Shown piece after piece: positions 20,564-61,642 of a stretch of 64,000 nucleotides of DNA. The stretch comes from Pseudomonadota bacterium (lineage in GTDB: Bacteria; Pseudomonadota; Gammaproteobacteria; Burkholderiales; Burkholderiaceae_C). The DNA lies in NCBI GenBank assembly GCA_040387875.1, contig JAZKCX010000039.1, positions 2,127-66,126 on the forward strand, given 5' to 3'. A program made the position numbers and the translations under genes. The notes below the pieces were generated by a model. That model was not told the DNA's origin. It made no database searches and saw nothing but the letters and a program-made list of their open reading frames with translations. Each line of letters opens with the position of its first letter. Within the stretch, counting starts at the first letter, position 1.

Positions 20564-22057
20564 ATGGCTTCCACCCCAGAAACGCCTGCCCTCGTTCCTG
20601 CTTCGTCCCCGGGCACCGCGCCTTTGGTGGCCCAGGCGGCCACTCCGCCCGCGCCGGTGGCACCTGTGCTGGTCACGCCCAATACGGCGGTGCTGGGCGT
20701 GTTGTCCGGCATTGCGCCCGGCACCGAAGTCTTCCGTGGCGCGGCGCGGTTTGCGCCCGAACGGCTGGAGCCCCTGTTTGCCGGTGACCGCCTCACGGTT
20801 CCTGCGGGCGGCGCAACCAACGTCACTTTCTACGGCCAGGGCGTGAACAAAACCCCGGTCAACGGCGTCTTCTACGGCGGTACCGACGCCGTGCTTACAG
20901 CAGCCTCGGTGTCGCCCGGCGTTCGCCAGTTGCAGGTAGAACTCAGCAGCGGCGACCTGCTGGTCGCGGTGCCCGAAGCCGCCGACACCGGCGCCGTGGC
21001 CGTGGTCAAAAAAGGGGCTGCTGCAGCGGCGGCGTCCGGCGGCAGCGGGCTGGCAGACAACGCCGGCTTGCTGGGCCTGTTTGCCCTCGCCAGCGGGGTG
21101 AGCGGCGGCGGTAGCAGCGATTCGACATCGGACAGCGGCGGTTTTTCTGCCAGCGATTCGGGCAGCACCTCCTCCTTCAACAGCTCAGGCAATTCCGACA
21201 GCACCGCTTTCGCGCCTGCGGACACCTCCAACAACACGGGCGCCAGCCCGCCCGCCAGCACCGCCGATCCGGTAGCCGGCAACGAAGAGGCCACACCGCC
21301 CGATGCATTGGGCGATGAAGGTGGCAGCGTAGTGGGCGACTTGACTGGCGCCCTGCCCGGCGCCGAAGGCGAAGAAGGCGCCGAGGGCGGCAGCCCGCTG
21401 GACGCTTTGACTGGCGGCCTCGGAGGTGAAGGCGGCGGTCCGCTCGGCGCTTTGACCGGTGGTCTGGGTGGCGAGGGTGGCGGCCCACTGGGCGCCCTGA
21501 CGGGCGGCTTGGGTGGCGAAGGCGGGAGCCCACTGGATGCCCTGACCGGCGGCCTCGGTGGCGAGGGTGGCGGCCCGCTCGGCGCGCTGACCGGCGGCTT
21601 GGGCGGCGAGGATGGCGGCCCACTGGGCTCCGTGACCGGCTTGCTCGGTGGTGAAGGCGGCAGCCCCTTGGACGCTTTGACTGGCGGCCTGGGCGGCGAA
21701 GGCGGTAGCCCGCTAGACGCCCTCACGGGTGGCTTGGGTGGCGAGGGCGGAAGCCCACTGGATGCCCTGACCGGCGGCCTGGGCGGTGAAGGCGGTGGCC
21801 CGCTGGGCCCGGTGACTGGCTTGCTAGGTGGTGAAGGCGGCAGTCCTCTGGACGCACTGACCGGCGGCCTCGGTGGTGAAGGTGGCAGTCCGCTGGGCGC
21901 CTTGACTGGCACCAACCCGCTCAGTGGCGGCGTTACCAATGCGCTGCCTGTCGGTGAGGCCGGTGGGTTAGTCGACGACGGAATGTTCTCTGGCGGTCCG
22001 CCTCCCGTAGGCAGCATGCCCCCGCAACAGGGCGACCCTTTTACTGGATTCGGTTAG
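20564..22057 (+). CDS. repetitive Cys-free acidic protein, paralog P1 of the T1SS-linked cargo family
   Basis: The ATG at 20564 has an AAGGA Shine-Dalgarno sequence 5 nt upstream. The N-terminal 150 aa aligns with the proteins at 57881-59755 and 60224-61642 (GVLS..G.E..RG..R....L..GDR..VP.GG.ANV.F...P.NGVF.GG..AV...SPGV.Q..V....GD..VA.P). A KK-hydrophobic segment follows, then a Ser/Asp-rich tract, then 12 tandem 15-aa Gly-rich repeats. Confidence 0.75.
   Translation: MASTPETPALVPASSPGTAPLVAQAATPPAPVAPVLVTPNTAVLGVLSGIAPGTEVFRGAARFAPERLEPLFAGDRLTVPAGGATNVTFYGQGVNKTPVNGVFYGGTDAVLTAASVSPGVRQLQVELSSGDLLVAVPEAADTGAVAVVKKGAAAAAASGGSGLADNAGLLGLFALASGVSGGGSSDSTSDSGGFSASDSGSTSSFNSSGNSDSTAFAPADTSNNTGASPPASTADPVAGNEEATPPDALGDEGGSVVGDLTGALPGAEGEEGAEGGSPLDALTGGLGGEGGGPLGALTGGLGGEGGGPLGALTGGLGGEGGSPLDALTGGLGGEGGGPLGALTGGLGGEDGGPLGSVTGLLGGEGGSPLDALTGGLGGEGGSPLDALTGGLGGEGGSPLDALTGGLGGEGGGPLGPVTGLLGGEGGSPLDALTGGLGGEGGSPLGALTGTNPLSGGVTNALPVGEAGGLVDDGMFSGGPPPVGSMPPQQGDPFTGFG
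21386..21910 (+). repeat. about 12 tandem 45-bp coding repeats (GGSPLDALTGGLGGE units) inside P1
   Basis: Counted by hand from the translation (aa 283-457 of the 505-aa ORF). The units differ by synonymous and G/S, D/G substitutions. Confidence 0.9.
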
Positions 22058-45335: not shown

Positions 45336-47186
45336 TTAGCCGGACTCGATTTTTCGCTTTTCCACCCTGCAGAATTGGTAGGCGTAACCTTTCGCACCGA
45401 TAAACGCCTTCTGCAGGATGCAACTACCTGCGTTGATGGAAAAACCACGGCTTTCGGCTGTTTTTGACGCGCCCTCCAGAAGCGTTGTGTTTTCCGATTC
45501 CAACTCCTGTTGTCGTTGCGGATACAACTGGAATTCACACGTCACATCACTGGAATTTTGTTTGACTCGGGGAATGACCGCCCCGGCGAGCTCGGTAGTT
45601 CGATTGATATAGCGGGTCACCAATTTGCACGCTGTACTGCCAGTGCGGATCTGGTTGCGTTGCAACCAACGGTTCAGTCTGGAAAGCCTGTGGGCGCGCG
45701 CATCCACACGCCCTTGAACAATTGCGTACAAACCCCCTGGACGACTGTCAACGAGGGATTCCGCACGCTCCCAGAAAACTTTTGATTGTGAAATTTCAGT
45801 GAGCGATACAAACACCAGCTGTTCAGGGAAGGCGGGCGTGATCCAGGCAAAAGGAGGGCCGATCAACAACACCATCGATGAATCGGGCTGGCTGATCTTG
45901 GGCACCTCCACTGCATAGCTTTCGCTGGACCACGGCGCATGGCCCCACGTTTCAAACCGCACTAGCGTTACCAGCATCGAAAACACCAGCATCATTGGCA
46001 CAAACCGGTTTGCCTTTGTAGGGCCGACGAGCGCCCTGAAAGCCAACCAGCACGCGATCGGCAACAACATTTCTATTGATACCGCATACCGACCAATGCT
46101 GAACAACAACATCCAAGTGAAGTAGCTGGTGGCCAGGAATATCAGGAAAGGACGAATACCATGGGATTCCCCTGTGGCGGGCAATCCTTCCGCGCGATTC
46201 GATCTTGCACCGGAGATTTTCCTGAGAAGATTTCGGAAAAACCAGACCCAGAGCAGGGTGTAGCTGATCGGCCATAGCCACAGCGTCAGCTTTATTTCAC
46301 CCATCCGCTGCGGCGAGACGGCTACCACATAGGGGTAAAAAATGGCTTCGACAATGCTGCGTGGCATCCAGCTTGTATCGCGCAGGGAGCTTTGTTCAAA
46401 AAGCTCTGACCGAAAAACCGAATTGAACATCGGAAATACCGGGTTTCCGAAATGCTGCCACATCGTCAAATACCAAAACCCGCCCGTCACCGCCATGCCG
46501 AACAACACGCCCAGGCCAAAAATGGTCGTCACCGCCAGGCGCTGTGGTAACGGTAGCCTGAGACAGAGCAGGCTGACAAAAATACCCACCGCGTAGATCG
46601 CATTGGTTAATTTGAGCCCGGCACCCATACCCACCAGCAGGGCGGCCAGAAAGCAGATGCCCAGGCCACTTCGCCAATCTGATTCCAGTGTTTTCCACGA
46701 CTTGAGAATCAGATACAGCGCACCCAGATTCAGCAAGGCTGTTGTGTTGTCGCCCATGGTGTTACCCAACTCGGACAGGAAGGTCGGTGCAAGACACCCG
46801 CCCAGTGCCAGCAACACCACCACATGCGTTTTCGTATCGGTGGGCAGTAACAGGCGCGCAATGGCCAGCAACAAGCCAAAATTCAGCCCATGTAGACACC
46901 CCATGATGAAACCTGTCGCGGGGGGCCACAGGTATTTGGACATCCAGTAATAAGGAATATCCAGCAGCGGATTGAAGTAACTTTGGATTCCCGCAGGCGC
47001 CAGATCAGTGCCTGTTCGGTTGGTCAGATAGGCCCATGGGTTGTAGACATGGTAATTCTGAAGATCCCAGTTGGCATCCTGTCCTGCATACAGCGAAAGC
47101 AGGCCAAACAGCGCAGCACCCACAGCCCACAAAGGAATCTCGTACCCACACAGTCTTGGCGCCAGAAATGCAGATGGTCTGATCAT
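45336..47186 (-). CDS. polytopic membrane protein, candidate GT-C-fold glycosyltransferase (GT87/DUF2029-like, uncertain), with a ~190 aa C-terminal soluble domain
   Basis: A 616 aa protein with about 11-12 hydrophobic helices in the first ~420 aa. An acidic/aromatic loop (DANWDLQNYHVYNPWAY) follows helix 1, as in GT-C enzymes. The gene is clearly lower in GC than its neighbours. Confidence 0.45.
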   Translation of the reverse strand: MIRPSAFLAPRLCGYEIPLWAVGAALFGLLSLYAGQDANWDLQNYHVYNPWAYLTNRTGTDLAPAGIQSYFNPLLDIPYYWMSKYLWPPATGFIMGCLHGLNFGLLLAIARLLLPTDTKTHVVVLLALGGCLAPTFLSELGNTMGDNTTALLNLGALYLILKSWKTLESDWRSGLGICFLAALLVGMGAGLKLTNAIYAVGIFVSLLCLRLPLPQRLAVTTIFGLGVLFGMAVTGGFWYLTMWQHFGNPVFPMFNSVFRSELFEQSSLRDTSWMPRSIVEAIFYPYVVAVSPQRMGEIKLTLWLWPISYTLLWVWFFRNLLRKISGARSNRAEGLPATGESHGIRPFLIFLATSYFTWMLLFSIGRYAVSIEMLLPIACWLAFRALVGPTKANRFVPMMLVFSMLVTLVRFETWGHAPWSSESYAVEVPKISQPDSSMVLLIGPPFAWITPAFPEQLVFVSLTEISQSKVFWERAESLVDSRPGGLYAIVQGRVDARAHRLSRLNRWLQRNQIRTGSTACKLVTRYINRTTELAGAVIPRVKQNSSDVTCEFQLYPQRQQELESENTTLLEGASKTAESRGFSINAGSCILQKAFIGAKGYAYQFCRVEKRKIESG

Positions 47187-48319: not shown

Positions 48320-50281
48320 CTACGCCAGCGAACGGAAAAGCGCCTCGAGCTTGCGCGCAGACTCTGCGGGGTTGGTGGCGGGGCTGTCTTCCAGCCGCTG
48401 CCGCATGCCCTGGCGCAGTGCTTCGAGTTCCTGCGGATGGCTGGCGTAGTGTTTGCAGCGGGCCACATATTCGTCGGTGCTGTGGGCGACCAGCTCGGTC
48501 AACGCCAGCGAAGTAAGCAGCGAAAGACTCACGCGCGAGACGTGGGTCTTGCCGGCCAGGGTGATCACGGGAATGCCCATCCACAGCGCCTCGATGGTGG
48601 TGGCGGTGCCGTGGTAGGGATAGGGGTCCAGCGCAATATCGGCCTGCTGGTACAGCGCCAAGTGCTGCGCAAAACCCATGCGCGCGTGCATCTGTACCCG
48701 GCCCAAATCAAAACCCATGCGCTCAAAACGCTGCAGTTGCTCGGTCTTGAGCACCGCGTCGGACAGCGGCGCGGCTTTCACAATCAGCCGGGTCTCGGGC
48801 ATCTCCTGCATGATGCGCGACCACAGCGCCAGGGTCTCATCGGACAGCTTAGCGAGGTTGTTGAAGCTGGCCAGCGTGAGGTAGCCGTTGCGCAGCAGCG
48901 GTGTGGGCCCGCAGGGCGGCAGTTCGGGTGGCTTGCGGATACACAGGAAGGGCGCCGGCATGCGCAGCAACTTTTCTGAATGGATCGCATCGGCCAGCTC
49001 GGGCGGGTCGGCAATCGCATCCGAGATGCGGTAGTCCATGGTCGAAAGACCCGTGGTGTTGGGATAGCCCAGGTAAGTCATCTGCACCGGCGCCAGACGC
49101 TGCCCGAAAATCGGCAGGCGGCTGTCGCCTGTATGGCCCGACAGGTCGATCAGCACATCGACCTTGTCGGCAACAATCTGCGCCGCAAGTTCTTTGTTGC
49201 TGCTGCGGCCCAGCTCGCGCCAGCGGTCGCCAAAATGCTGCTTGAGCTGCTCGGTCAGGCCGTCCGACTTGTCTCCGGCGTTGTAGAGCACGATATCGAA
49301 CTGTTTGCGGTCGTGCTGCATCAGCACCGGCGCAATGATCTGGCCGACCGGGTGCTGGTAGAAATCGGGGCTGACGTAGCCCACGCGCAGCTTGCGCTTG
49401 CCGAGGGCGAGCTTGGGTTTGGCAACCGCATCCGCCGTACCGGTGTGCCAGCCACGCGTCCACGCGACGTGTTCGCTGTAGATGTAAGCCGGGTCGTGCG
49501 CCTGGTAGTTGAGCATCAGCAGGTAGTTGGACACCGCCGTGGTGTTGGACGGGTTGCCCTGGGCACTGGAACGGAACAGCTCGGTGGCACGCGCAATATC
49601 GCCATTGCGGTAACACATGCCGCCCAGAAAGGTGCTTGCAGGCGTGTAGTCGGGAAACTTTTCCAGGCACTCGGTCCAAAGCGCCCGCGCTTCGGCGAGC
49701 TGGCCGGTTTCCTGATGGGCCCGGCCCAGCAGAAAGTAGCTGCGGTCGGAGTGTTCCGCCGCATGGAAGACCTTGCAAAAAGGCAAGGCATCGCTCCAGC
49801 GGTTTTGCCGGGCCAGGAGCTCGATCAGGTTGGACTGCGCCAGCCGCATGCCGGGCTGCAGGATAACGGCCTCGGTCAGGTGTTCCAGCGCTGCTTCAAA
49901 CTCGTGCAGTTCGGTCAGCACATAGCCCAGGTTGTTACGGGCCTGGCCCACCTCAGGCCGCAAGGCCACCGCACGGCTGTAGCACATTTTGGCGGCGGGG
50001 AAATCACGCAGCGTCGAATAACAGTTGCCCAGCGACAGCACTGCGTCGTAGCCCAGCTTGTCCTGGTCAAACAATGGCCGCAGCAAAAAGATCGCGTCTA
50101 CCGAGCGACCATTTTTGTTGAGATAGTCCGAGAGTGCGGCATGCGCTTCGGTGTTGTCCGGAGCGAAGGCGAAGGCCCGCAGGTAGGCAGCCTTGACGCT
50201 GTCAATGGAGGTGCCAGGCTGCTGCGACAGGCGCCGGGCCTGCAGCAGTGCCGCCGCAAAGCGTACTTCGTCGTTGTTCAT
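48320..50281 (-). CDS. TPR-repeat protein with a C-terminal GT41 (SPINDLY/OGT-type) glycosyltransferase domain
   Basis: The N-terminal ~280 aa are TPR repeats. The C-terminal half is collinear with OGT catalytic lobes ([75 protein letters not shown]). Confidence 0.8.
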
Positions 50282-50515
50282 GCGTTGGTGTCTGATGAAG
50301 CAGGTGAACGGGGTGGCGGGCACACGCCCGCGTGCCCCCGCCTGCCATTATGCGGACTTCGCAACCAGTGTTTTGCCTGCGTGCCAGCGCCACCGCAGCG
50401 GCCAAAAAAATCCTGTAAGAAAGGGCGGCCTGTCCCTACAAAGAAGCACCGCAACCTGAATGATCAGTACCGTGCGGTGTCGTTCAGTCATCTCAATTTC
50501 CTATTGGAGTTTTCA

Positions 50516-50803
50516 ATGATCGCTAACCAAGCCAAGTTCGCCGCTTCCTTCGCCCTGACCGCCGCCACGCTCGCGCTGGCCGCAACCGCCTTCGCCGCCG
50601 ACGCCCCCAAGGGCTCCAGCGGCAAGGCCGTCGCCGCCAAAGACAAGGTGCATTGCTACGGCCTGCATGAGTGCAAGGGCAACAGCGCCTGCAAGACCGC
50701 AGAGCACAGCTGCAAAGGCCAGAATGCCTGCAAGGGCCATGGCTTTGTGGCTTCGACCGCATCGCAGTGCCTGACCAAGGGCGGCACCATCGGCGACCTG
50801 TAA
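50516..50803 (+). CDS. DUF2282-type Cys-rich precursor peptide with a Sec signal peptide (bufferin BufA-like)
   Basis: A GGAG Shine-Dalgarno sequence lies 6 nt upstream. The product is 95 aa, with a signal peptide ending in AFA-ADA. The core [33 protein letters not shown]...QCLTKGG has 6 Cys. The gene lies immediately upstream of the DUF692 gene. Confidence 0.75.
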
Positions 50804-50875
50804 TCTGGTCTGACCTTGCCCCTGACATCCTGCCTGCAAGGGCGGGATGTTTTTTCATTTCCGGGTGTCTTCACC

Positions 50876-52600
50876 ATGCCTAAAAACCTCTACTCCCTGA
50901 CGGTGCCACACGCCGGTTTCGGTCTGGGTTTGCGAACCACCCACTACCCCGATTTTCTTGCATGCAGGCAGCCACTGGACTGGCTGGAAATCATCACGGA
51001 CAACTACCTGGTGGATGGCGGCAAGCCGCTGGTGACGCTGGACGCGATCCGCCGCGACTACCCCCTTGCCATGCATGGCGTGGCCCTGTCACTGGGTGCG
51101 CCTGCGGGCCACGACCGCGCCTATCTGAAGAAGGTCAAGGCGTTGGCAGACCGCATTGATCCCCTCTGGATTTCCGACCACCTGTGCTGGATCGGGCCGG
51201 AGCCGCAGCAACTGCACGACCTCTATCCCCTGCCTTACACCGAAGAAGCCGCACGCCACCTGATAACGCAGATCCGCCAGGTCCAGGACGTATTGCAGCG
51301 CCGCCTGGTAGTGGAGAACGTCTCCAGCTACATTGATTTCGCCTACTCGGCAGCCACCGAATGGGAGTTTCTGAGCCATATCGCGAACGAGGCCGATTGT
51401 TCCCTGCTGGTCGATATCAACAACATCTATGTCAGCAGCGTGAACCACGGCTTTGACCCCCTCGCCTATTTGCGTGGCCTGCCGGCGCAGCGTATTCAGC
51501 AGTTCCATCTGGCTGGCCATTCCAACGAGGGCACCCACATTGTTGACACCCACGACCACCCGGTGGCCGAGCCCGTGTGGGAACTCTACGCGCAGGCGTG
51601 CCAGATGTTTGGCCCAGTGACCACCATGATCGAGCGGGACGACCACATCCCGCCTTTGCGGGAGTTGATTGAAGAGCTGGACCGTGCCCGTGGCATTGCC
51701 GCCGCCCTGGAGAACGAACAGCCCCGCAGCGCGTACCATGCCTCGGCGTTGCGCTGGGCTGCGCCCCTCGCAGCACAAGACCCGGGCTTGCAGGCAATGC
51801 GGCAGCGCATGGCCACCTACGTCTTGGGCCCCGCTAACGGCACCGAAGCCATGGCGCCTATGGTGCGCCAAGCGCCGGGTGTGGATGTGCCTCTGCGCCT
51901 TTCCATCTACCACCACGCCTACCGCGCCCGGCTGGCCGAAGTGCTGGCGGACACCTTTGAGAAAACCGTGCTCTATATGGGCTCGGACAGTTTCACGCAG
52001 CATGCCCGTACGTTTGCGGAGCAAAACCCGCCGCTCACCCGAAGCCTGGGTCGGTACGGCGCGAGCTTTCCGGCCTACCTGGCGGCGCTTTATCCCCACA
52101 ACCCGGAGTTGCGCGAGCTGGCCTACCTGGACTGGGACTTGCGCAGCTGTTTTGACGGTGCCGATGCGCCCGCCCTGGATGCGGCGGCCGCGGCGGCCGA
52201 CGCACAGCAATCGTGGTTGCTCCATACGCCCGCAATACACCCCAGTCTGGTGCTGCGCGAAATTACCAGCAACGTGGTGCAGCTCTGGAAGTCCATCGAC
52301 GAAGACCAGGAGGTTCCCGCACCGGTCTATCGCGATACCCCCATGGCTTTGGCAGTCTGGCGCAAAGGGCTGCAGCCACACTTCAAAACGGTAGAGGGCA
52401 TGCAGGCCGTCTGGCTGCGCCGGCTGATGGCAGGTGCGTCCCTGTCGCAAGCCTGTGGTGAATTTGAGGGCACAGAGCACATGCCTGAGATCGCCGTATT
52501 CGGCCAGTGGCTGGCTGAATGGCTGGAAGACGAACTGCTGAGCCCACCACCGCTGCTGCAGCCATTGGCACACGCTGCAGCAGCAGAAGCCGTCAGTTAA
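50876..52600 (+). CDS. fused DUF692 (MNIO, MbnB/BufB-like) and DUF2063 (MbnC/BufC-like) protein
   Basis: Residues 1 to about 285 are DUF692-like (GFGLGLRTTHY, LEIITDNY, HGVALSLG, SDHLCW, ENVSSY, DINNIYVS, FHLAGH, IERDDHIPPL). Residues from about 310 to the end are DUF2063-like (RLSIYHHAYRARLAEVLADTF, RSLGRYGASFPAYL). The ORF is continuous at 574 aa. Confidence 0.8.
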   Translation: MPKNLYSLTVPHAGFGLGLRTTHYPDFLACRQPLDWLEIITDNYLVDGGKPLVTLDAIRRDYPLAMHGVALSLGAPAGHDRAYLKKVKALADRIDPLWISDHLCWIGPEPQQLHDLYPLPYTEEAARHLITQIRQVQDVLQRRLVVENVSSYIDFAYSAATEWEFLSHIANEADCSLLVDINNIYVSSVNHGFDPLAYLRGLPAQRIQQFHLAGHSNEGTHIVDTHDHPVAEPVWELYAQACQMFGPVTTMIERDDHIPPLRELIEELDRARGIAAALENEQPRSAYHASALRWAAPLAAQDPGLQAMRQRMATYVLGPANGTEAMAPMVRQAPGVDVPLRLSIYHHAYRARLAEVLADTFEKTVLYMGSDSFTQHARTFAEQNPPLTRSLGRYGASFPAYLAALYPHNPELRELAYLDWDLRSCFDGADAPALDAAAAAADAQQSWLLHTPAIHPSLVLREITSNVVQLWKSIDEDQEVPAPVYRDTPMALAVWRKGLQPHFKTVEGMQAVWLRRLMAGASLSQACGEFEGTEHMPEIAVFGQWLAEWLEDELLSPPPLLQPLAHAAAAEAVS

Positions 52601-54314
52601 TCAGCGGCCGGTAGTAATTGGCCGGTGGCGGAGCAACGTCTTCGACCGGCGGCCGGGACTCCACAGGCGGAGGCGGCTGCACCGCAGGCCGGAATTCGCG
52701 TGCCGGTGGCGAGCTGACCAGCGGCCGCAACTCGACCGCTGGCCGGGGTGGTACGGGTGCCGCCAGGCGAGGCTCAATGTCCAGCGCGGCCACCGGTGCG
52801 CCAAGCGCGGAGCTGCGCTTGAGCACCGGACTGCGTGGTTCTGGCGGGAGGGGCACCGAAGCCGTGTTGCAGTTGGCGTTGTCGGTACGGCAGACCGACT
52901 CGCGCAGGCTTTCTGAAAATATGTCGTTGGCATCGGCTTTGGACACCACGCTGTGAATCCAGCCGTTGTCGCTGACGCCATCGACCAGCAACCTGCCGGA
53001 AGTCCTGGCCAGCCGGAATTCGGCAATGCGCAGATCAAACACGCCGTCTGCCAGATCCAGCAGCAGATTGAAATGCTCAAGCTGAGCGTCCAGCACATTG
53101 GGCAGTGTTTCGCGGCCAAACCCGAGCAGCCGGCGTTTGGACTGGTAGGCGAGACCCGCCTCGCTCACCGCTTCCATCAGTTGCTTGACCCGATCCGCGC
53201 CGGAAGAGGTACGCCCCCAGGAAGCAGATGTCACCTCCACCAGATTGGCGCGCGCAGCCTCCAGCCGGGCCTCTTGTGCGCCTACTTCCACCAGCGCCGC
53301 CTTGATGCGCGACTGCACATCAAAGCCGTTACCCAGGTTGAAGTTCAACTCCAGCGCTGCCCGCGTGGGCTCGGTTGTCAGGTCGCGGTTGTCTTTGGTA
53401 CGGGACACCACTGCATCCAGCGTGGGAAAGCGGCCGGATTTTTCACGGTCCACGTTCGCCTTGGCGCGCTCTATGCGGCCGCGGGCCTCGCCCAGCTCGG
53501 CGCTGTTGGCCTCGGCAATCTGAATGGCCTGGGCCAGCGAACCCACCGCCCACTCCTTGGGCGTGGCCAGCGTCGGCAACCCGGCGGCATTGGGCACAAA
53601 CTTGAAATAGGTTTCAAACTTGGCCAGCGCATCGATCAGCAGGGCATCAAATTCCTGCCGCTTGGCGGCTGCGCCCGACCGGCGCGATGCCGCAAGGCGC
53701 GCATCACCCTGACCGGCAGCACCCAGCTCGACCTTGCGCTGTTCGGCGCGGGTCAACTCATCAAGAACCAGCGTGGAGCGGGCGGCAATGCGCTTTTTCA
53801 GATCAAAGCGCTGCACCTGGAGGTAAGTCGTGATGCCATCAAGCACCACCTTCTGGCTGGCAACCCGCAAACCCTCTTCCAGCGCACTGGAGTTGGCAGT
53901 GGCAGCCCGCTCGCGGGCATTGATGCCACCGGCATCCAACAGGCTGACCCGCGCGCTGGCGGTCAGGGCTGTAAAGCGCTGCGAGGACGTGTTGCCGGGA
54001 GACGTAAAGGTGCTGGAGCGACCGGTCGCAGTGGCCAGTGAAAAACGTGGAAACCGGGCCCGTTTGGCGGCTTCGGTCTCAAACCCGCTGCTGGCCAGAC
54101 TGGCCTGCGCGGCCAGAACCTCGGGATGGTCCTGGGCCATATTGAGTATGCCCAGCTTGACCTTGTCCGAGTACTCGACCGTACCCAGCGAACGGCCTGA
54201 GAGTGTGGTGGAGGGCGCCAGAACCGGCGCGCCATCGTCCTGCGCATGCGCGTTGAGGGCGGCCACGAACAGGGCAACCGCAAGATGCAGCGGAGAGGGT
54301 CTGAACACGTTCAA
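52593..54314 (-). CDS. TolC-family outer membrane protein of the T1SS, with a 90-aa Pro-rich C-terminal extension
   Basis: The TTG start overlaps the MFP stop (TTGA). A signal peptide ends in AHAQ, and two TolC repeat halves are present. The tail is rich in Pro and Arg. Confidence 0.85.
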   Translation of the reverse strand: MNVFRPSPLHLAVALFVAALNAHAQDDGAPVLAPSTTLSGRSLGTVEYSDKVKLGILNMAQDHPEVLAAQASLASSGFETEAAKRARFPRFSLATATGRSSTFTSPGNTSSQRFTALTASARVSLLDAGGINARERAATANSSALEEGLRVASQKVVLDGITTYLQVQRFDLKKRIAARSTLVLDELTRAEQRKVELGAAGQGDARLAASRRSGAAAKRQEFDALLIDALAKFETYFKFVPNAAGLPTLATPKEWAVGSLAQAIQIAEANSAELGEARGRIERAKANVDREKSGRFPTLDAVVSRTKDNRDLTTEPTRAALELNFNLGNGFDVQSRIKAALVEVGAQEARLEAARANLVEVTSASWGRTSSGADRVKQLMEAVSEAGLAYQSKRRLLGFGRETLPNVLDAQLEHFNLLLDLADGVFDLRIAEFRLARTSGRLLVDGVSDNGWIHSVVSKADANDIFSESLRESVCRTDNANCNTASVPLPPEPRSPVLKRSSALGAPVAALDIEPRLAAPVPPRPAVELRPLVSSPPAREFRPAVQPPPPVESRPPVEDVAPPPANYYRPLIN

Positions 54315-55642
54315 GGCTCCTGGAATGCTTCACGCTGGGCCTTCAGCACCGGCCTGAGAATGTACCAAATGAAGGGGTCACGCCCGACCAGCAGATCGAC
54401 CTCAACCTCCATACCCGCCGTGATGGCCCGCTCGGGAATGCCCACGTACTCCTTGTCGGTACTGATCAGCAGCCGGTAGTAGGAGCGCACAGTGGGGTTG
54501 GTCGGGTCGCTGTCGGCATCGGCACCGACAAGGTTGACTTTCCCATTCACCGCGCCATAGCGCAGGAAATCGTAGGCGCTCACTTTGACGCGTGCTGTCT
54601 GTCCGGTGTTGACATAACCACGGTCACTGGGATTGAGCTTGGCTTCGATGATGATCTGCTTCTGGTCAGGCACCACTTCCATGATCTGCTCACCCGGCTT
54701 CACCACCCAGCCCGGGCTGGGGTTGCGCAGCCCCTTGATGATGCCGTCGGCCGACGCGCGCACGACCGTGCGCGAACGCTGGATTTTGGCACGTGAAAGG
54801 TCTTCGCTCAGACTCGCAATCTGCCGCTCGGCAGTGGCCAGTTCGTCAGAGGCTCGCCGGCGGTAACGGCCCTGCGCCTCGACAATTTTGCCTTGCGCTT
54901 CCGTAATGGCGGAACCGGCAGAGACCAACGCCTGCCGGGCGGTAGCAAGGTCGCCCCGTACGGCCTCCATCTGGCGCTGCTTTTCCAGGACCTCGAGTTG
55001 CGGAATCAGTTTTTCGTCCAGCAGTTGCTGGGACAGATCGACTTCTTTTTTGTAGAGCGCCAGCCGCGACGTCAGCCCATTGACCCGCTCCTGCTGCTCG
55101 ACCAGCTTGCTGCGGGCCTGCGCCAATTGCGACTCTGCGGTGTCCACCACGCCTTTTTGCTCCAGCGAGCGGGCTTCAAAAGCGCCCGATTCGGCCTGGA
55201 AGACCGATTCGTCAATGTCTTTGCCCAGCGCCGCGCGGGTAAAAGGTTTGCCCTGGCTTTCGGCCAGCAGGCGCGTACGCGTGGCCTGCAACGAGGCGTA
55301 GCGAACCGTCAGTTCTTCGAGGTTCAGGCTGTTACCGCCCAGATCAATTTCTACCAGCGGTTGGCCCGATTTGACTTTTTCACCTTCCTTAACAAGTACC
55401 GCACTGACAATACCACCCTCCAGGTGCTGCACCACCTTGACCTGGTCGGAGGGAATCACTCTGCCCGGCGCAATCACCACCGACTCCACCGGGAACCCCA
55501 GACCGAACGCGGCGAGAACAACCACCCCGCCCCACAAAAGCCATGAGGTGATGGATTTTTTTCTGGAATAGGGAAGCGCTTTGGTGGAGCTTGCAGGATT
55601 CTGCAAAACCAGCGGGAGGGTATTGGCGTTCTTGGAGTCCAT
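54311..55642 (-). CDS. HlyD-family type I secretion periplasmic adaptor
   Basis: An N-terminal TM, the HLEGGIV motif, a long coiled coil and a C-terminal barrel are present (443 aa). Confidence 0.9.
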   Translation of the reverse strand: MDSKNANTLPLVLQNPASSTKALPYSRKKSITSWLLWGGVVVLAAFGLGFPVESVVIAPGRVIPSDQVKVVQHLEGGIVSAVLVKEGEKVKSGQPLVEIDLGGNSLNLEELTVRYASLQATRTRLLAESQGKPFTRAALGKDIDESVFQAESGAFEARSLEQKGVVDTAESQLAQARSKLVEQQERVNGLTSRLALYKKEVDLSQQLLDEKLIPQLEVLEKQRQMEAVRGDLATARQALVSAGSAITEAQGKIVEAQGRYRRRASDELATAERQIASLSEDLSRAKIQRSRTVVRASADGIIKGLRNPSPGWVVKPGEQIMEVVPDQKQIIIEAKLNPSDRGYVNTGQTARVKVSAYDFLRYGAVNGKVNLVGADADSDPTNPTVRSYYRLLISTDKEYVGIPERAITAGMEVEVDLLVGRDPFIWYILRPVLKAQREAFQEP

Positions 55643-55676: not shown

Positions 55677-57530
55677 TCAGCTGTCCGCCGGCTCGGCAGG
55701 CGCAGAGGATTTCGGCGCGGCAGAAATTGCTGCGGTTGCCGCAGGCGCCGGCAACTTGACGCCGAACAGCTTGGGCACCATCACCGATGCGGAGCCACTC
55801 TCGACATTGCCCGCCCCGGTGACGTAATGCACCTGGCTGGCACTGGCCACAATACGCAGCGAGTGCGTCACCACAATGATGGTGCGGCTGCGGGCCGCAG
55901 CCATCAGCGCGGCAATCAGCGCCGTCTCCGCCTGGTAATCCAGGTCATTGCTGGGCTCATCCAGAATCACAACAGCCGGATCGCGCAGGAACAACTGGGC
56001 CAGCGCAAGCTTGCGGCGTTCACCCATGGACAGGCCCATGCCGCCCTCACCCAGCACCGTGCGGTATCCTGCTGGCAAGCGCGAAATAAAGTCGTGTGCA
56101 CCGGACAGGCGGCAGGCTGCAACAATTCTTTCGTCGGTCTGGTCGGGGGCGGCGCGGCGGAGGATTTCAATCAGCTCTCCGCCAAAAAGATATACCTCTT
56201 GCGACAGGATACTGATCCACTGAACCAGCTCTTCCCGGGCAAACTGCGACAGGTCATATTCATCAACCGAGATTTTTCCGTTGGTGGGGCTATACAGGCC
56301 CGCAACCAGTTTGACCAGCGTAGATTTGCCGGCGCCGTTTTTACCGACAATCACATGCAGACCACCGGGCCCGATTTCGAGATTGACGTTCTCCAGCACG
56401 GAGGCGGAGTTTTCGTTGAACTGAAAGCTGACTTCCTGCAGCCGGATTGCCCCGCGCGGCTTGGGCAACACAATGCCACCCGGGCGGCGATCCGTTGGTT
56501 CATTGAAGACGTTTTCAAGCCGCTTTGCGGCCTCGGTGGCGGTTGCAAGAGATCGCCAGTTGGAAGCCAGCCCCGCGACGGGAGACAGGGCTTTGGACGA
56601 CAACATGCTGGCGGCAATCAGACCGCCGACAGTCATCCATTGCTGCATGACTGCCAGAGCCCCGACCGACACCACCACAACGGAGAAAACCGACAGCATC
56701 ACAGTGGTCAGCTCCCGGGCGCGCTCTATCTCGCCGTTTTTTCGGAAACTCTCGCTGAGCCAGGCGTTGTAGTTCTGTTGCCACATCGCTACGACAGGCT
56801 GGTTGTGCCCCAGACTTTTCAGGGTTTCACGGGCCCGGCAAATCTCTGACGTCACCTGGTCCAGGCTACGTCCGCGGAGCACTTCTTCGACACGCCCGGC
56901 GCGTACTTCATCAGCCCACCACCAGGCAAAAAACGCAAGTACTCCCAAAAACAGCAAAAGCACTGGCAACAGCGGCCATGCCACCATGCCAATAATGACG
57001 AGTGCAAAAAGAGCCACGGGCATGTCAAAGATGGAGGTCATCAGCCCACCGGTCACTGTTGCACGCACTGCGCCCACGTCGCGGAACAACAAAAACCATG
57101 CTGTGGCAGGCCGGGACTCCAGCATGCGCAAAGGCCGCTGCAGCATGGACTGCAACAAGGCGTTCGACACCCCATGGTCAACAATTGCGCCGGCATCGCG
57201 CAGCGACCGGGACCGCTTATTGCGCAGCCACAACTCAATCAGCAAAAACACAAAAATACCGGCCAGCAGGGCGACCAGTGTGGAGTAGCCACTGCGACCA
57301 ATCACGCGGTCGTACACCTGTAGCGTGAAAATTGACGGCAACAACCCGAACAGACTGATGGGCAGCGACCACCAAGCCGCCTGCTTCACCAAGGGGTAGG
57401 CACTGGTAAATGCGTCGTGCAGCGCGCCACCGTAGGGAGTGACCGCAGAGTCGGTAGCCGTCTTGTTCACTAACTGACGGGGCAACAGGAATTTGAGCAT
57501 GGTTGTTACAGGAAGATAGTCGAGCGCCAA
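55677..57530 (-). CDS. type I secretion system ABC permease/ATPase (PrtD/HasD-like, no C39 peptidase domain)
   Basis: The TMD carries LQVYDRV. Walker A GKNGAGKST, signature LSMGERRK, Walker B VVILDEPSNDLD and H-loop VTHS are present. The maximal ORF starts at TTG 57530, and the first ATG is at 57500. Confidence 0.9.
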   Translation of the reverse strand: MALDYLPVTTMLKFLLPRQLVNKTATDSAVTPYGGALHDAFTSAYPLVKQAAWWSLPISLFGLLPSIFTLQVYDRVIGRSGYSTLVALLAGIFVFLLIELWLRNKRSRSLRDAGAIVDHGVSNALLQSMLQRPLRMLESRPATAWFLLFRDVGAVRATVTGGLMTSIFDMPVALFALVIIGMVAWPLLPVLLLFLGVLAFFAWWWADEVRAGRVEEVLRGRSLDQVTSEICRARETLKSLGHNQPVVAMWQQNYNAWLSESFRKNGEIERARELTTVMLSVFSVVVVSVGALAVMQQWMTVGGLIAASMLSSKALSPVAGLASNWRSLATATEAAKRLENVFNEPTDRRPGGIVLPKPRGAIRLQEVSFQFNENSASVLENVNLEIGPGGLHVIVGKNGAGKSTLVKLVAGLYSPTNGKISVDEYDLSQFAREELVQWISILSQEVYLFGGELIEILRRAAPDQTDERIVAACRLSGAHDFISRLPAGYRTVLGEGGMGLSMGERRKLALAQLFLRDPAVVILDEPSNDLDYQAETALIAALMAAARSRTIIVVTHSLRIVASASQVHYVTGAGNVESGSASVMVPKLFGVKLPAPAATAAISAAPKSSAPAEPADS

Positions 57531-57880: not shown

Positions 57881-59755
57881 TCAGCGGTCCAGCAAACCAC
57901 CCAGTGCACCAGTGACAGGGTTGGCTTCTGCGCCGCCCAGGCTGGTCACGGGGATAGGCAGGCCACCGCCCAAACCACCACCCAGCGACCCAAGCAGATC
58001 GCCCGGGATCAGGTCCGTTGGTACCGGCAGGCCACCGCCAGCTCCGCCCAGAGAACCGACCAGCTCAAGAACGGGTTCGAGCAAGCCGCCCGCGCCGCCT
58101 GTGAGCAGATCGGTAGGTACAGGCAGGCCACCAGCGCCGGCGCCCAGCAAGTCGGTAGGAACCGGCAAGCCCCCACCGCCCAGCGAGCCGAGCAGGGAAG
58201 TCAGCGGGCCGAGAGCGCCGCCGGCATCACCACCCAGCAAGCCGCCGAGACCACCCAAACCACCCGCGTCAAGCGCGCTTGCGCCCGTGGTTGCGCCGCC
58301 GCCGATGACGCCGCCACCCAGCAGTGCAAGAACCGGCGCAAGGAGGCCGCCACCGTCAAGCGAACCGGTACCGCCGAGCAGACCGCCAAGCAGGTTGCCG
58401 CCCACCTGTGCGCCGCCTTCGCCACCACCTGCGCCAACGCCGCCGGAGACAGAGCCCAGACCGCCATTGAGGAAGTTGCTCAAACCGTTTGTCAGCTGAT
58501 CAACCTGCAGATTCGCGGGTCCGATCAGCGATTCCGTAGCGCCTTCGCCCAGGATTCCGTCGACGATGGGTTGCAGAACATCGTTGCCTACGGAGGTGAC
58601 GCTGAAGCCCAAGTTGTCCACCGGGTCGAGCTGATTGGGGGCGTCGAATCCAGGGTCAATACCGAGGGACTCGGTGATGTCGTTACCAGTGTCCGTAACG
58701 GTTTTGACCAGATCGTCCAGAGGTTGCAGCGAACCACCGATGCCAGCGCCTGCAGCGCCCAGTGCACTGCCGTCCAATGCATCGGTCAAGTTGTCGACCA
58801 ACTGCGCCGTAGGATCCAGGAGACCAGGCTTTTGCGCACCTGGACCGGTACCCGTACCGGTGCCGGAGCCAGTGTCCGTACCGGTATTGGTACCCGTATC
58901 GGTTCCCGTGTCTGTACCGGTGTTGGTTCCAGTATTGGTGCTGGTGTTAGTGCCCGTATCGGTACTGGTATTGGTTCCGGTATTGGTGCTCGTGCTCGTG
59001 CCAGTACTGGTACTCGTGCTCGTATTCGTACCAGTGTTGGTGCCCGTGGTAGTACCGGTGCTGGTGCCGGTATCCGTACCCGTGTTCGTGCCCGTGTTGG
59101 TATTGGTGCTTGTGCCCGTGCCTGTACCGGTCGCTGTTGCGGTGCTGGTATCTGTGCCGGTTCCAGTGCTGGTGCCCGATCCCGTACCGGTTCCGGTGTT
59201 GGTGCCGCCCGAGCCGCCGTCGTCGTCATCGTTCAGCGCAGCGGCCAAACCGGCCAGACCCAGAAGTGCCAGAGGCAACCATCCCAGACCTTCGGTACCT
59301 GCAGCGCCCTTTTTCTTCACAGCAACCGATGCGGCATCGGTGGCGTCGGGTGCGGCCACGAACAGGTCGCCCGTGGCCATATCGACCGTCACTTGCTCAA
59401 CACCGGGGGACAGCGTCTTGACACCAATAACCGCATCCGATCCACCGGAGAAAACGCCGTTCAACGGGGTTTTGCTGCCGCCAGGGCCGGGGAAAGTTAC
59501 GTTGGCCGAGCCGCCTTGCGGAACAATAACGCGGTCACCAGCCAACAGCGAAGTATTTCCTTCGGCCGCAAACCTTGCGCTTCCGCGCACAACTTCCACG
59601 CCGGGAGTAGCACCAGACAGAACGCCTAAGCCTCCCGCCTGAGAAGCTGCTACGGGAGCGGCAGACGCGGCAGCAGGGCTTGCCTGGGCGAGGGTCGTGA
59701 TGTCTTCACCAGCGGTCAACGGGCCTTTCAGGCTCGTTTCTTGAGTTGCGATCAT
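57881..59755 (-). CDS. T1SS-linked repetitive Cys-free acidic protein, paralog P2
   Basis: The ATG at 59755 is preceded by AAGGA. There is no signal peptide. The layout is: conserved N-terminal domain, KKK-hydrophobic-DDDD segment, a 119-aa X-Thr array, an acidic D/L-rich domain shared with P3, then a Gly-rich C-terminus with [10 protein letters not shown] repeats. Confidence 0.8.
58847..59203 (-). repeat. X-Thr dipeptide array in P2 (60 consecutive units, 6-nt period)
   Basis: Hand check of aa 196-314 of the 635-aa ORF. Every even position is Thr, twice Ser, with no register shift. The odd positions are only G, N, S, D, A or T. Confidence 0.9.
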
Positions 59756-60223: not shown

Positions 60224-61642
60224 TTACAACATCGACAATATGGGCGCCAGCGGAGATGGGTTGCTGGCCGCATCGGTGGAGCTGGAGATTGGCGGTATGG
60301 CCCCTGGCGTGCTGCCGTTGCCGGACACGTTCTCCACAAACTCGGAGCCTGAACCCACAACCACGCCAGGTGTGTTTTCTCCGGTCGCGGTATTTCCAAG
60401 GGCACCCACCGGCGCCAAAACGCTACCAGCACCGCCCAAACTACCGAACATGCCGGTCAGCGGCCCCAGCAAACCACCCACTCCTGCAGTCTCGCCCACA
60501 CCCAGCAGACCCGAAGAGCCCAGCGCGTTGGTCAGCCCATCCGTCACGAAATCGACCTGCAGGTCTGCGGGACTGATCAGGGTTGCCGTTACGCCATTGC
60601 CCAGGATGGAATCCACCAGCGGAGTGACCGGAACAGACACCACGCCGCCGGTGACATCCGCGGCAAGTGCATCCACTGAATCCAGAGAGTTGGGGTCATC
60701 GGCAAAAAACTCTTCGCCAACGACAGGCGCCAACAGGCCGTTGCCAGCATCGGTAACCGATGCAACCAAGTCATCTACCGGTTGCAAAGATGTACCCAAA
60801 CCACTTGCCAACCCGCCGAGCTCCGCTTTTGCGGCGCCGTCGGCCGGCGCTTCTGCAGCGCCGCTGGGCCCTTCAAGGGCATCGGTCAGATTGTCAACCA
60901 GCGTCGCGGTTGGATCGAGGAACCCCATGCCCTCTGCACCCGTCCCCGTATCGGTGCCAGTTCCGGTCCCGGTATCGGTGCCAGTCCCGGTGCCCGTGCC
61001 AGTGTCCGTACCAATTCCGGTTCCGGTATCCGTGCCAATACCTGTGCCCGTACCCGTATCGGTGCCAACACCGGTACCCGTGCCAGTGCCGGTGTCGGTA
61101 TTGTCCCCACCGCCTCCACCACTACCAGCGAGACCGGCCAGTCCAAGCAAGCCCAAAGGCAGCAGCCAACCCAGCCCGCCGTCGGCCACAGCAGCCTTTT
61201 TCCTGACCAGCAAGGACGACTCGATCTGGGTGAAATCCGGGGGAGCAACAATAAAGTCACCAGCAGCCAGGTCAACCACCACCTGGTCAACACCCGGGGC
61301 AATGGTCTTGACGCCGATCACCGCCTCAGAACCACCAGAAAAGACCCCCACCAAAGGATTGGGATTGCTGGCAGAAGCGGGAAAAGCCACATTGGCCGAC
61401 CCACCTTCGGGCACGATGACCCGGTCACCCAACTGCAGCGCAGCGGACCCTTCGGCAGGCAAGCGGGTTCCTCCGCGGACGATTTCCACGCCCTTAGAGG
61501 CATCGGACAGCACGCCCAGCATGGGCACCGCCTGGGGGGTTGCCGCAGCCGTAGCAGCAGGGGCAACCGCAGCCTGCGCCACCAAGGCATCCAGGCCTGG
61601 TGAGCTTAGAACTTCGGCACTCGTATTAGGGGTAGATTCCAT
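60224..61642 (-). CDS. T1SS-linked repetitive Cys-free acidic protein, paralog P3
   Basis: The ATG is preceded by an AAGAGG Shine-Dalgarno sequence. It has the same architecture as P2: N-terminal domain, RKK-hydrophobic-GGGGGD segment, a 54-aa X-Thr array, the shared [14 protein letters not shown] domain and a Gly-rich tail. Confidence 0.8.
60941..61102 (-). repeat. X-Thr dipeptide array in P3 (27 units)
   Basis: aa 181-234. The even positions are Thr, apart from V192, I202 and I210, which are also beta-branched. Confidence 0.85.

Follow-up and report, generated by a model that had tools for sequence, protein, structure and literature searches.

Small non-RTX proteins linked to type I secretion genes carry an N-terminal domain predicted to resemble the LapA/MpIBP plug

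We know of retained substrates of type I secretion systems (T1SSs; two-step type I secretion) so far only among giant repeats-in-toxin (RTX) adhesins, which combine a recognisable retention module with a LapB-type transporter and a LapG/LapD release switch. In the adhesin MpIBP, the N-terminal plug RIN (Protein Data Bank (PDB) entry 5IX9) was described as a novel β-sandwich too large to pass TolC, and no transmembrane segment follows the plug in either MpIBP or LapA (PMC5550230). The same structure served as the template when LapA's retention module was modelled (bioRxiv 10.1101/198937). The LapG motif, [T/A/P]AA[G/V], lies just after the module, the protein PA1874 with its degenerate motif is not cut by LapG, and the LapB subgroup of transporters is defined by an N-terminal C39-like domain of ~125 amino acids (aa; Smith et al., bioRxiv 10.1101/198937). 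A folded N-terminal domain can also stall a T1SS substrate, as in eGFP-HlyA, which stays lodged in the translocator while its C-terminus is exposed at the surface (Lenders et al. 2015, PMC4648471). Here we analyse a stretch of 64,000 nucleotides from a Pseudomonadota bacterium (GenBank assembly GCA_040387875.1, contig JAZKCX010000039.1; the whole stretch is called the window) that encodes three paralogous proteins, P1, P2 and P3, two of them beside a set of T1SS genes. We propose, with a probability of roughly one half, that these proteins are small, acidic, Cys-free, non-RTX T1SS substrates that are exported C-terminus-first and tethered by a RIN-like plug together with an anchor helix.

The N-terminal domain and its predicted fold

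An initial annotation, made from the DNA alone, had described an N-terminal block of ~100 aa shared by the three proteins and built of short β-like segments, and our comparisons bear out both parts of this description. A tblastn search of the 64-kb window with the N-terminal 150 aa of P2 recovered exactly two further copies of the block, one in P3 (61190-61519(-), 62% identity, E = 5e-37) and one in P1 (20693-20986(+), 59% identity, E = 1e-32), and a three-way alignment returned the consensus that had been given for it (GVLS, G.E, RG, GDR, VP.GG, NV.F, GVF.GG, PGV.Q and GD..VA.P). The paralogy of P1, P2 and P3 is far beyond chance. They have a common layout, in which a leader and the β-domain are followed by a K/R-K-K patch, a short spacer of Gly, Ala and Ser, a hydrophobic segment, an acidic/Gly cluster, a stalk, a C-terminal module and a tail. 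AlphaFold predicts the ~100-aa domain as all-β, with about 11 strands and zero helix, at a predicted local distance difference test score (pLDDT) of about 90 in a model of the P2 N-region built from 4 sequences and of 86-98 in a separate model of full-length P3 built from 25 sequences.

The family to which these proteins belong is previously unannotated: it has no Pfam or NCBIfam assignment, and no prior description was found in the literature searched. A word-indexed protein search returned one relative, a truncated protein from a Hydrogenophaga metagenome-assembled genome, and an exhaustive HMMER search found 48 representative clusters at E ≤ 1e-3 among 1.84 billion representatives, with the domain at residues about 40-185 in nearly all of them. 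Scanning one genome per species with a 4-sequence alignment yielded 75 related loci, all in Comamonadaceae (Variovorax, Hydrogenophaga, Xenophilus, Comamonas and uncultured lineages labelled "Burkholderiaceae"), the closest being 86% identical; a genome usually holds 2-3 paralogs. The repeat proteins P0036, P0047 and P0048, which match the middle of the profile, were treated as unrelated repeats, and the DDxP proteins of Variovorax (PMC7730722) are a different family.

Structural comparison of the predicted domain singles out the MpIBP plug. In a Foldseek search of 350,542 chains, the AlphaFold2 (AF2) model of the P2 N-region has 5IX9 as its top PDB match (probability 0.99, E = 0.4, target-normalised TM-score (TMt) 0.64, rmsd 2.8 Å, 68 columns), and the P3 model returns the same entry first (probability 1.00, E = 0.068, TMt 0.71, rmsd 2.5 Å, 70 of 76 residues), all other matches having a TMt of 0.24 or less. 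The annotation of this entry is "Cell surface anchoring domain". Both paralogs single out 5IX9 among all the chains searched, which makes chance very unlikely, and a resemblance of the N-terminal domain to the LapA/MpIBP plug at the level of predicted fold is therefore supported. The initial annotation had likened the domain to LapA-type retention modules and to FecR-like domains, and had named profile searches and structural modelling as the ways to check this. The modelling leaves the MpIBP plug as the single outstanding match, so that the first likeness stands at fold level for two paralogs, whereas profile searches with the two families returned no match.

In these searches, the retention_LapA model NF033682 matched none of the proteins at E ≤ 10 for whole proteins or E ≤ 1 for isolated N-domains, and Pfam FecR (PF04773) matched neither whole proteins nor isolated N-domains at E ≤ 1. 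A LapA-like N-terminus that served as the positive control, and that differs very little from real sequences collected afterwards, reached E = 3.5e-33 with NF033682 in the same library and E = 1.6e-11 with PDB 5IX9. We then compared profiles, using 107 real retention-module proteins, of which 93 were aligned with the 5IX9 sequence to give 94. Against these, hhalign gave a 30-sequence alignment of the family a probability of 5% (P = 0.008) over its full length and of 26% (P = 0.0007) for the β part alone, aligning 32 columns around the pattern G.R...L..GD.v.VP..G.a.V.f, with scores of 21.6-23.8 compared with 8.5-16.3 for 20 column-shuffled controls and 15.3 for a reversed control. This profile-profile signal is suggestive of homology and is not proof of it.

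The likeness to FecR, which shares a short-strand pattern of the form G..V...G.....L..GD.v, did not survive. The top 50 Foldseek matches of the P2 and P3 models include no FecR- or PupR-type structure, and FecR domains are periplasmic anti-sigma parts C-terminal to a transmembrane helix, whereas the domain of P1, P2 and P3 lies N-terminal to its helix. The retention-module profile caught a PF04773 protein, P0156, at E = 7.6e-7, and the FecR and retention-module families may thus be related to each other.

Other candidate assignments were rejected. A sub-threshold match to Cupin_3 (E = 0.004) and low-complexity, sub-threshold matches to serine-rich, Sdr and FliH models were judged compositional. 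Marginal PDZ matches (ZASP/Cypher, E = 0.004-0.009, profile against PDB sequences) were unsupported by Foldseek, and an RxxxR in the second strand, considered as a PilZ-like cyclic di-GMP motif, was accompanied by neither a PilZ profile match nor a PilZ structure among the Foldseek matches.

The leaders of the three proteins are 40-50 aa long, rich in Ala, Pro and Thr and devoid of a signal-peptide core, and leaders across the family show no evident Sec-type signal peptide. Those of the three proteins carry a short conserved motif, [ILV][ILV]AQA, at 61571-61585 in P3 (residues 20-24), 20624-20638 in P1 (residues 29-33) and 59681-59695 in P2 (residues 32-36); the strict pattern occurs in 17 of 41 family leaders, with near matches in more. 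The LapA and MpIBP modules lack a leader of this kind. Because no hydrophobic core precedes it, the motif is not a Sec signal, and the idea that [LV][LV]AQA is a signal-peptidase site was dropped on the same ground.

Type I secretion genes and the parts behind the domain

P3 and P2 lie directly upstream of genes for an ATP-binding cassette (ABC) transporter, an HlyD-family adaptor and a TolC-family channel on the same strand (Table 1), and in the window nothing else stands between P2 and these three genes. P3-P2-ABC-HlyD-TolC is the usual arrangement of substrate, ABC, membrane fusion protein (MFP) and outer-membrane protein (OMP) genes. Among the 60 related loci with a full 10-kb flank, 43 have an ABC ortholog downstream on the same strand (65-92% identity); they come from Variovorax, Hydrogenophaga, Xenophilus, Comamonas and uncultured lineages. 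The remaining 17 are unlinked paralogs, like P1, which neighbours an APH-family kinase and HtpG without T1SS genes. Along the 696-position TIGR03375 model the ABC protein aligns to positions 140-666 with 371 bits, where the cutoff is 693; no more than about 36 residues stand before the aligned part, and the P2 stop codon lies 350 bp upstream. Since the alignment covers only positions 140-666, the transporter lacks the N-terminal C39-like domain of the LapB subgroup. The features generally expected of T1SS substrates are present, namely linkage to ABC, MFP and OMP genes, acidic composition, a paucity of Cys and the lack of a Sec signal, the C-terminal signal being a candidate only.

Loci from Variovorax, Xenophilus and Comamonas hold two further genes between the substrate and ABC genes, one for a Pal/OmpA lipoprotein of ~170 aa and one for an unannotated protein of 570-1070 aa (L023:13056-16739, L079:13687-16139, L075:14800-18556 and L064:13739-15454); the last of these loci, from Hydrogenophaga electricum, has only the second gene. 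The longer protein is apparently cytoplasmic and has no Pfam match; in some cases a Mur-ligase-like C-terminus is fused to it. Neither protein is encoded in the window.

Behind the β-domain, P1, P2 and P3 carry an ~18-aa hydrophobic segment, whose mean Kyte-Doolittle hydropathy is 1.86-1.88 in P2, 1.5-1.7 in P3 and 1.2-1.4 in P1, and for P3 the AF2 model has a low-confidence helix at residues 160-174. The segment is kept in all 30 complete N-regions of the family and reaches a mean of at least 1.6 over 17 residues in 27 of them; the flank before it is net positive in 21/30 and the flank after it net negative in 28/30. By sequence, the family thus has what is expected of a bitopic protein, one hydrophobic segment of ~17-20 aa with positive-inside charge asymmetry. 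A KK flank, a hydrophobic helix and an acidic flank together are the signature of a candidate membrane-anchor helix, which the first reading of the DNA had passed over.

Beyond the helix, a Thr/Gly-repeat stalk of ~130 aa in P2 and ~60 aa in P3 (disordered in the AF2 model) is replaced in relatives by PT-rich or poly-Pro, collagen-like GXY, (DA)n or (SD)n sequence, and stalks range from about 25 to more than 500 aa, the shortest being 25-38 aa. The C-terminal module is conserved across the family; its equivalent in P3 is predicted as a helical bundle (pLDDT 80-89) with neither a Pfam match nor a PDB fold match by Foldseek. The post-helix part of P2 has an isoelectric point (pI) of about 4 and 3 Lys+Arg in 445 aa, and is Cys-free and without an RTX motif. 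The same holds for the corresponding parts of all three paralogs (pI about 4, 0-3 Lys+Arg, zero Cys, zero RTX nonapeptides) and, more widely, for the family, in which the pI is about 4, 0-7 Lys+Arg occur in 150-530 aa and 25 of 26 members are Cys-free. All 26 full-length members have 0 strict RTX motifs and the loose form GGxGxD 0-1 times. C-terminal ends of the P-x-x-G-L-L type recur across the family, and one member, P0023, has a Calx-beta domain.

Several relatives depart from this plan. Large members of 1269 and 1609 aa in Xenophilus (L079:9812-13618) and Comamonas (L075:9881-14707) carry perfect (DA)n or (SD)n over several hundred residues right after the hydrophobic helix, recalling the SD-repeat stalks of staphylococcal surface proteins, and many GGDLLGGVLGEDGLVGGLL repeat copies near the C-terminus. 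A subgroup encoded outside the window (P0034, P0039 and P0044-P0046; 140-217 aa) consists of the β-domain without helix or stalk and ends in a conserved, Cys-containing motif of the ...VGFYCYS type. The most divergent full-length member, P0037 (locus L010:1-15445), has no leader and neighbours HU, an M15 peptidase, thymidylate kinase, gyrase B and an RCC1-repeat protein. The 4.3 kb upstream and the 10 kb downstream covered in this locus contain no T1SS, and the locus could belong to a phage or to a very different organism.

Proposed tethering, release and rival explanations

Compared with the LapA/MpIBP module, the P1/P2/P3 domain is likewise N-terminal, a small β-sandwich of the Ca-independent type with a predicted fold at TMt 0.64-0.71 to RIN, with Gly-rich or low-complexity sequence behind it that could pass through TolC, and encoded next to T1SS genes; the two also share the local pattern G.R...L..G(D/E).V.(VP/TG)..G.a.V.f. 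It differs in standing behind the 40-50-aa leader, in being about 25 aa longer and in preceding a helix with KK and DDDD flanks, whereas the retention module has no transmembrane sequence. The proteins as a whole are 470-635 aa long and RTX-free, in contrast to LapA-type proteins of more than 1000 aa with C-terminal RTX repeats, and the conserved [TAP]AA[GV], the LapB-type ABC N-domain and neighbouring lapG/lapD are not seen here. The family thus falls outside LapA-type proteins on most counts and adds variable stalks, which those proteins lack, to the leader and the helix. As a T1SS plug, however, its most plausible mode of action is that of a retention module.

On our proposal, the adjacent ABC, HlyD and TolC proteins would export P1, P2 and P3 C-terminus-first, and export would remain incomplete, the β-sandwich plug and the following hydrophobic helix being left behind on the cell side. 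The channel itself would be threaded by the low-complexity stalk, and the helical C-terminal modules and the Gly/Leu tail would be displayed outside. We infer all three elements of this proposal, namely that the proteins are T1SS substrates, that they are retained rather than released, and where the helix lies.

Release, if any, would not run through the LapG/LapD circuit, since the KK-Ala-Ala patch is not a conserved LapG site. The initial annotation had offered the basic patch and Ala-Ala behind the domain as a LapG-like processing site. The quoted strings are present as written in all three proteins, basic residues followed by Ala-rich sequence; the interpretation fails. P2 has GAAG, P3 KAAV and P1 poly-Ala followed by Ser, none of which fits [T/A/P]AA[G/V], and across the family this motif occurs in 6 of 30 members, with any Ala-Ala missing in 11 of the 30. 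What the family conserves is a basic pair, a hydrophobic helix and an acidic cluster, so that KK-Ala-Ala most likely represents the positive, cytoplasm-type flank of the anchor helix and its spacer, in proteins that are rich in Ala. The initial annotation's remark that the window encodes no LapG or LapD homolog agrees with our Pfam scans of unassigned open reading frames (ORFs), in which neither PF06035 (LapG) nor PF16448 or GGDEF/EAL (LapD) was found, the remaining ORFs being judged by eye; PF06035 and PF16448 were likewise absent from the conserved neighbour gene clusters of the 75 related loci.

The N-terminus could be placed in two ways. As a periplasmic plug, as in LapA, it would fit the fold analogy, and in every member at least about 55 aa separate the β-domain from the first module, enough for the roughly 14-nm TolC channel. 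With a cytoplasmic N-terminus and the helix in the inner membrane, it would fit the charge asymmetry, and eGFP-HlyA provides a precedent. The charges on either side of the helix speak slightly for the inner membrane and a cytoplasmic N-domain, the fold analogy and the shortest stalks for the periplasmic plug. A natural stalled T1SS substrate in the full sense is conceivable, if unlikely: its RIN-like domain would remain folded in the cytoplasm and its KK-flanked helix would enter the inner membrane at the ABC transporter, with the stalk lying in the HlyD/TolC tunnel and the acidic helical modules on the surface. It would resemble eGFP-HlyA in that a folded N-terminal domain halts export while the protein spans the translocator with its C-terminus outside; eGFP-HlyA was engineered, whereas P1, P2 and P3, whose topology is hypothetical, would be a natural design with a dedicated hydrophobic helix and variable stalks.

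A number of points weigh against a tethered T1SS substrate. Foldseek gives only modest E-values (0.4 and 0.068), for queries that are themselves predictions; NF033682 gives no match, and hhalign reaches a probability of only 5-26%, so that there is no sequence-level membership in the retention modules. The helix is moderately hydrophobic, Gly-rich and weak in P1 (1.2-1.4), and it is without precedent in the retention model because LapA and MpIBP have no transmembrane segment there. Stalks of 25-38 aa could not bridge the distance between the inner membrane and the cell surface unless the first module is extended or unfolded in the tunnel. Some family genes, in the contexts of P1, P0012 and P0037, lie away from any T1SS, and the secretion and surface location of the family members are predictions from sequence and models.

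The same proteins might instead be bitopic inner-membrane proteins inserted by Sec/YidC, with a cytoplasmic N-domain and a TonB/TolA-like periplasmic span, the T1SS exporting something else or merely interacting with them. This would account for the conserved helix with its positive-inside and acidic-outside flanks, for Pro-rich or other rigid spacers like that of TonB, for the unlinked paralogs and the members without a nearby T1SS, and for the Pal/OmpA lipoprotein of Variovorax-type loci. TonB and TolA do share an N-in, signal-anchor-like helix, a Pro-rich or extended spacer and a folded C-terminal module with the family, but in them the N-terminal cytoplasmic domain is all but missing, they have no T1SS linkage and their Lys and Arg content is not reduced, and we found no sequence or fold similarity between them and P1, P2 or P3. 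We consider this explanation unlikely, given a gene position directly upstream of ABC-HlyD-TolC in 43/60 loci across genera with no other candidate substrate in between in the window, a C-terminal part that is extremely poor in Lys and Arg, Cys-free, acidic and conserved at its end, the Calx-beta domain of P0023, and an N-domain whose fold matches a T1SS plug and not any cytoplasmic domain.

Less probable again is a fully secreted T1SS effector, in which the β-sandwich would be a binding domain, the helix would enter a target membrane or self-assemble, and the likeness to RIN would be convergent. T1SSs can export hydrophobic helices, for example the hydrophobic domain of HlyA, and the helix here could, once the protein is released, play the part of the hydrophobic domain in RTX toxins; the ABC transporter belongs to the domain-less class, whose substrates are small and set free, and sequence homology to retention modules is not demonstrable. 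However, the fold match is unique, is replicated in two paralogs and leads to a domain with a known retention role, stalks of about 25 to more than 500 aa right after the helix fit a spacer between an anchor and a displayed part, and the charge asymmetry around the helix follows the rule of the producer's own membrane.

A classical LapA-type system, with a periplasmic plug, a BTLCP protease encoded elsewhere that cuts at Ala-Ala and a LapD-like cyclic di-GMP receptor in control, would suit the RIN-like fold, the T1SS linkage and the Ala-Ala of all three window paralogs, but is very improbable in view of a LapG motif in 0/3 paralogs and its rarity in the family, the failure of LapG to cut the degenerate-motif protein PA1874, the lack of PF06035 and PF16448 in scanned ORFs and conserved neighbours, an ABC transporter without the LapB-type N-domain, the absence of RTX repeats and window proteins of less than 1000 aa.

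Features of the window and significance

Table 1 Positions of the P1, P2 and P3 genes, their parts and the linked secretion genes in the window
Feature	Position	Strand	Remarks
P2 gene	57881-59788	-	ORF from GTG 59788, 635 aa; likely start ATG 59755, 624 aa, preceded by an AAAGGA ribosome-binding site
P2 N-terminal β-sandwich domain	59339-59632	-	Residues 53-150, GLGVLSG...VAAPDA; predicted RIN-like plug fold (AF2 and Foldseek)
P2 KKK-GAAG	59297-59317	-	Residues 158-164; basic N-flank of hydrophobic helix
P2 hydrophobic Gly/Ala/Leu helix	59234-59287	-	Residues 168-185; candidate membrane anchor
P2 DDDD	59219-59230	-	Residues 187-190; acidic C-flank of helix
P2 low-complexity (T/S/N/D-G)n stalk	58823-59218	-	Residues 191-322
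P2 conserved C-terminal module	58469-58822	-	Residues 323-440, LLDPTA to QVDQLTNGL
P2 Gly/Leu-rich acidic tail	57884-58468	-	Candidate T1SS C-terminal signal region
P3 gene	60224-61642	-	472 aa
P3 β-domain	61232-61522	-	About residues 41-137
P3 RKK	61196-61204	-	
P3 hydrophobic helix	61124-61177	-	
P3 TG stalk	60923-61102	-	
P3 helical module	60521-60922	-	
Hairpin terminator-like site 3' of P3	60137-60167	-	14-bp stem, then T run
P1 gene	20540-22057	+	505 aa; likely start ATG 20564
P1 β-domain	about 20693-20980	+	
P1 VKK	21005-21013	+	
P1 weaker hydrophobic segment	21047-21100	+	
T1SS ABC permease/ATPase	55677-57530	-	Pfam ABC_membrane and ABC_tran; TIGR03375 LssB, E = 1e-110; PrtD, E = 9e-96
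T1SS HlyD-family periplasmic adaptor	54311-55642	-	TIGR01843, E = 1e-101, above curated cutoff
TolC-family outer-membrane channel	52593-54314	-	PF02321 OEP, E = 1e-30; TIGR01844, E = 1.5e-33

The plus-strand ORFs opposite P2 and P3 (58571-59642, 59958-61739 and 60782-61603) are antisense shadows of these repeat-rich genes; they translate to PV or GT repeats and are not to be annotated as genes. Adjoining the TolC gene is a cluster for a bufferin-type ribosomally synthesized and post-translationally modified peptide (50543-52600(+)), in which the end of ORF 48980-50803 encodes a BufA2 precursor (NF050166, E = 9e-27) and 50816-52600 a fusion of MbnB/DUF692 with DUF2063. In the close relative L015, too, TolC is followed by a DUF692-like gene. 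A glycosyltransferase with tetratricopeptide repeats and a GT41 (O-GlcNAc-transferase-like) domain is encoded at 48320-50323(-), 7.5 kb from P2, and it is pure speculation that such an enzyme could modify the Thr/Ser-rich stalks. A 616-aa ORF at 45336-47186(-) has no Pfam match and a weak NCBIfam match to an XrtX-associated membrane protein (E = 0.02); it lies in the stretch of lowest GC content in the window (0.56 at 46-48 kb), which may be an acquired island.

If our proposal is right, the plug fold would exist in a lineage invisible to current family models, on proteins a tenth the size of the giant adhesins, and would be paired there with a different class of ABC transporter and a membrane-type helix. 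Retained T1SS substrates would then have to be sought in a wider space, and the question arises whether such proteins are kept in the inner membrane or at TolC's periplasmic mouth. The proteins would also offer a very small candidate scaffold for surface display. Should they prove to be naturally stalled substrates, the family would provide a compact anchor of ~190 aa that is independent of LapG/LapD and works with a domain-less ABC transporter, and the plug fold would be used well beyond the giant RTX adhesins.

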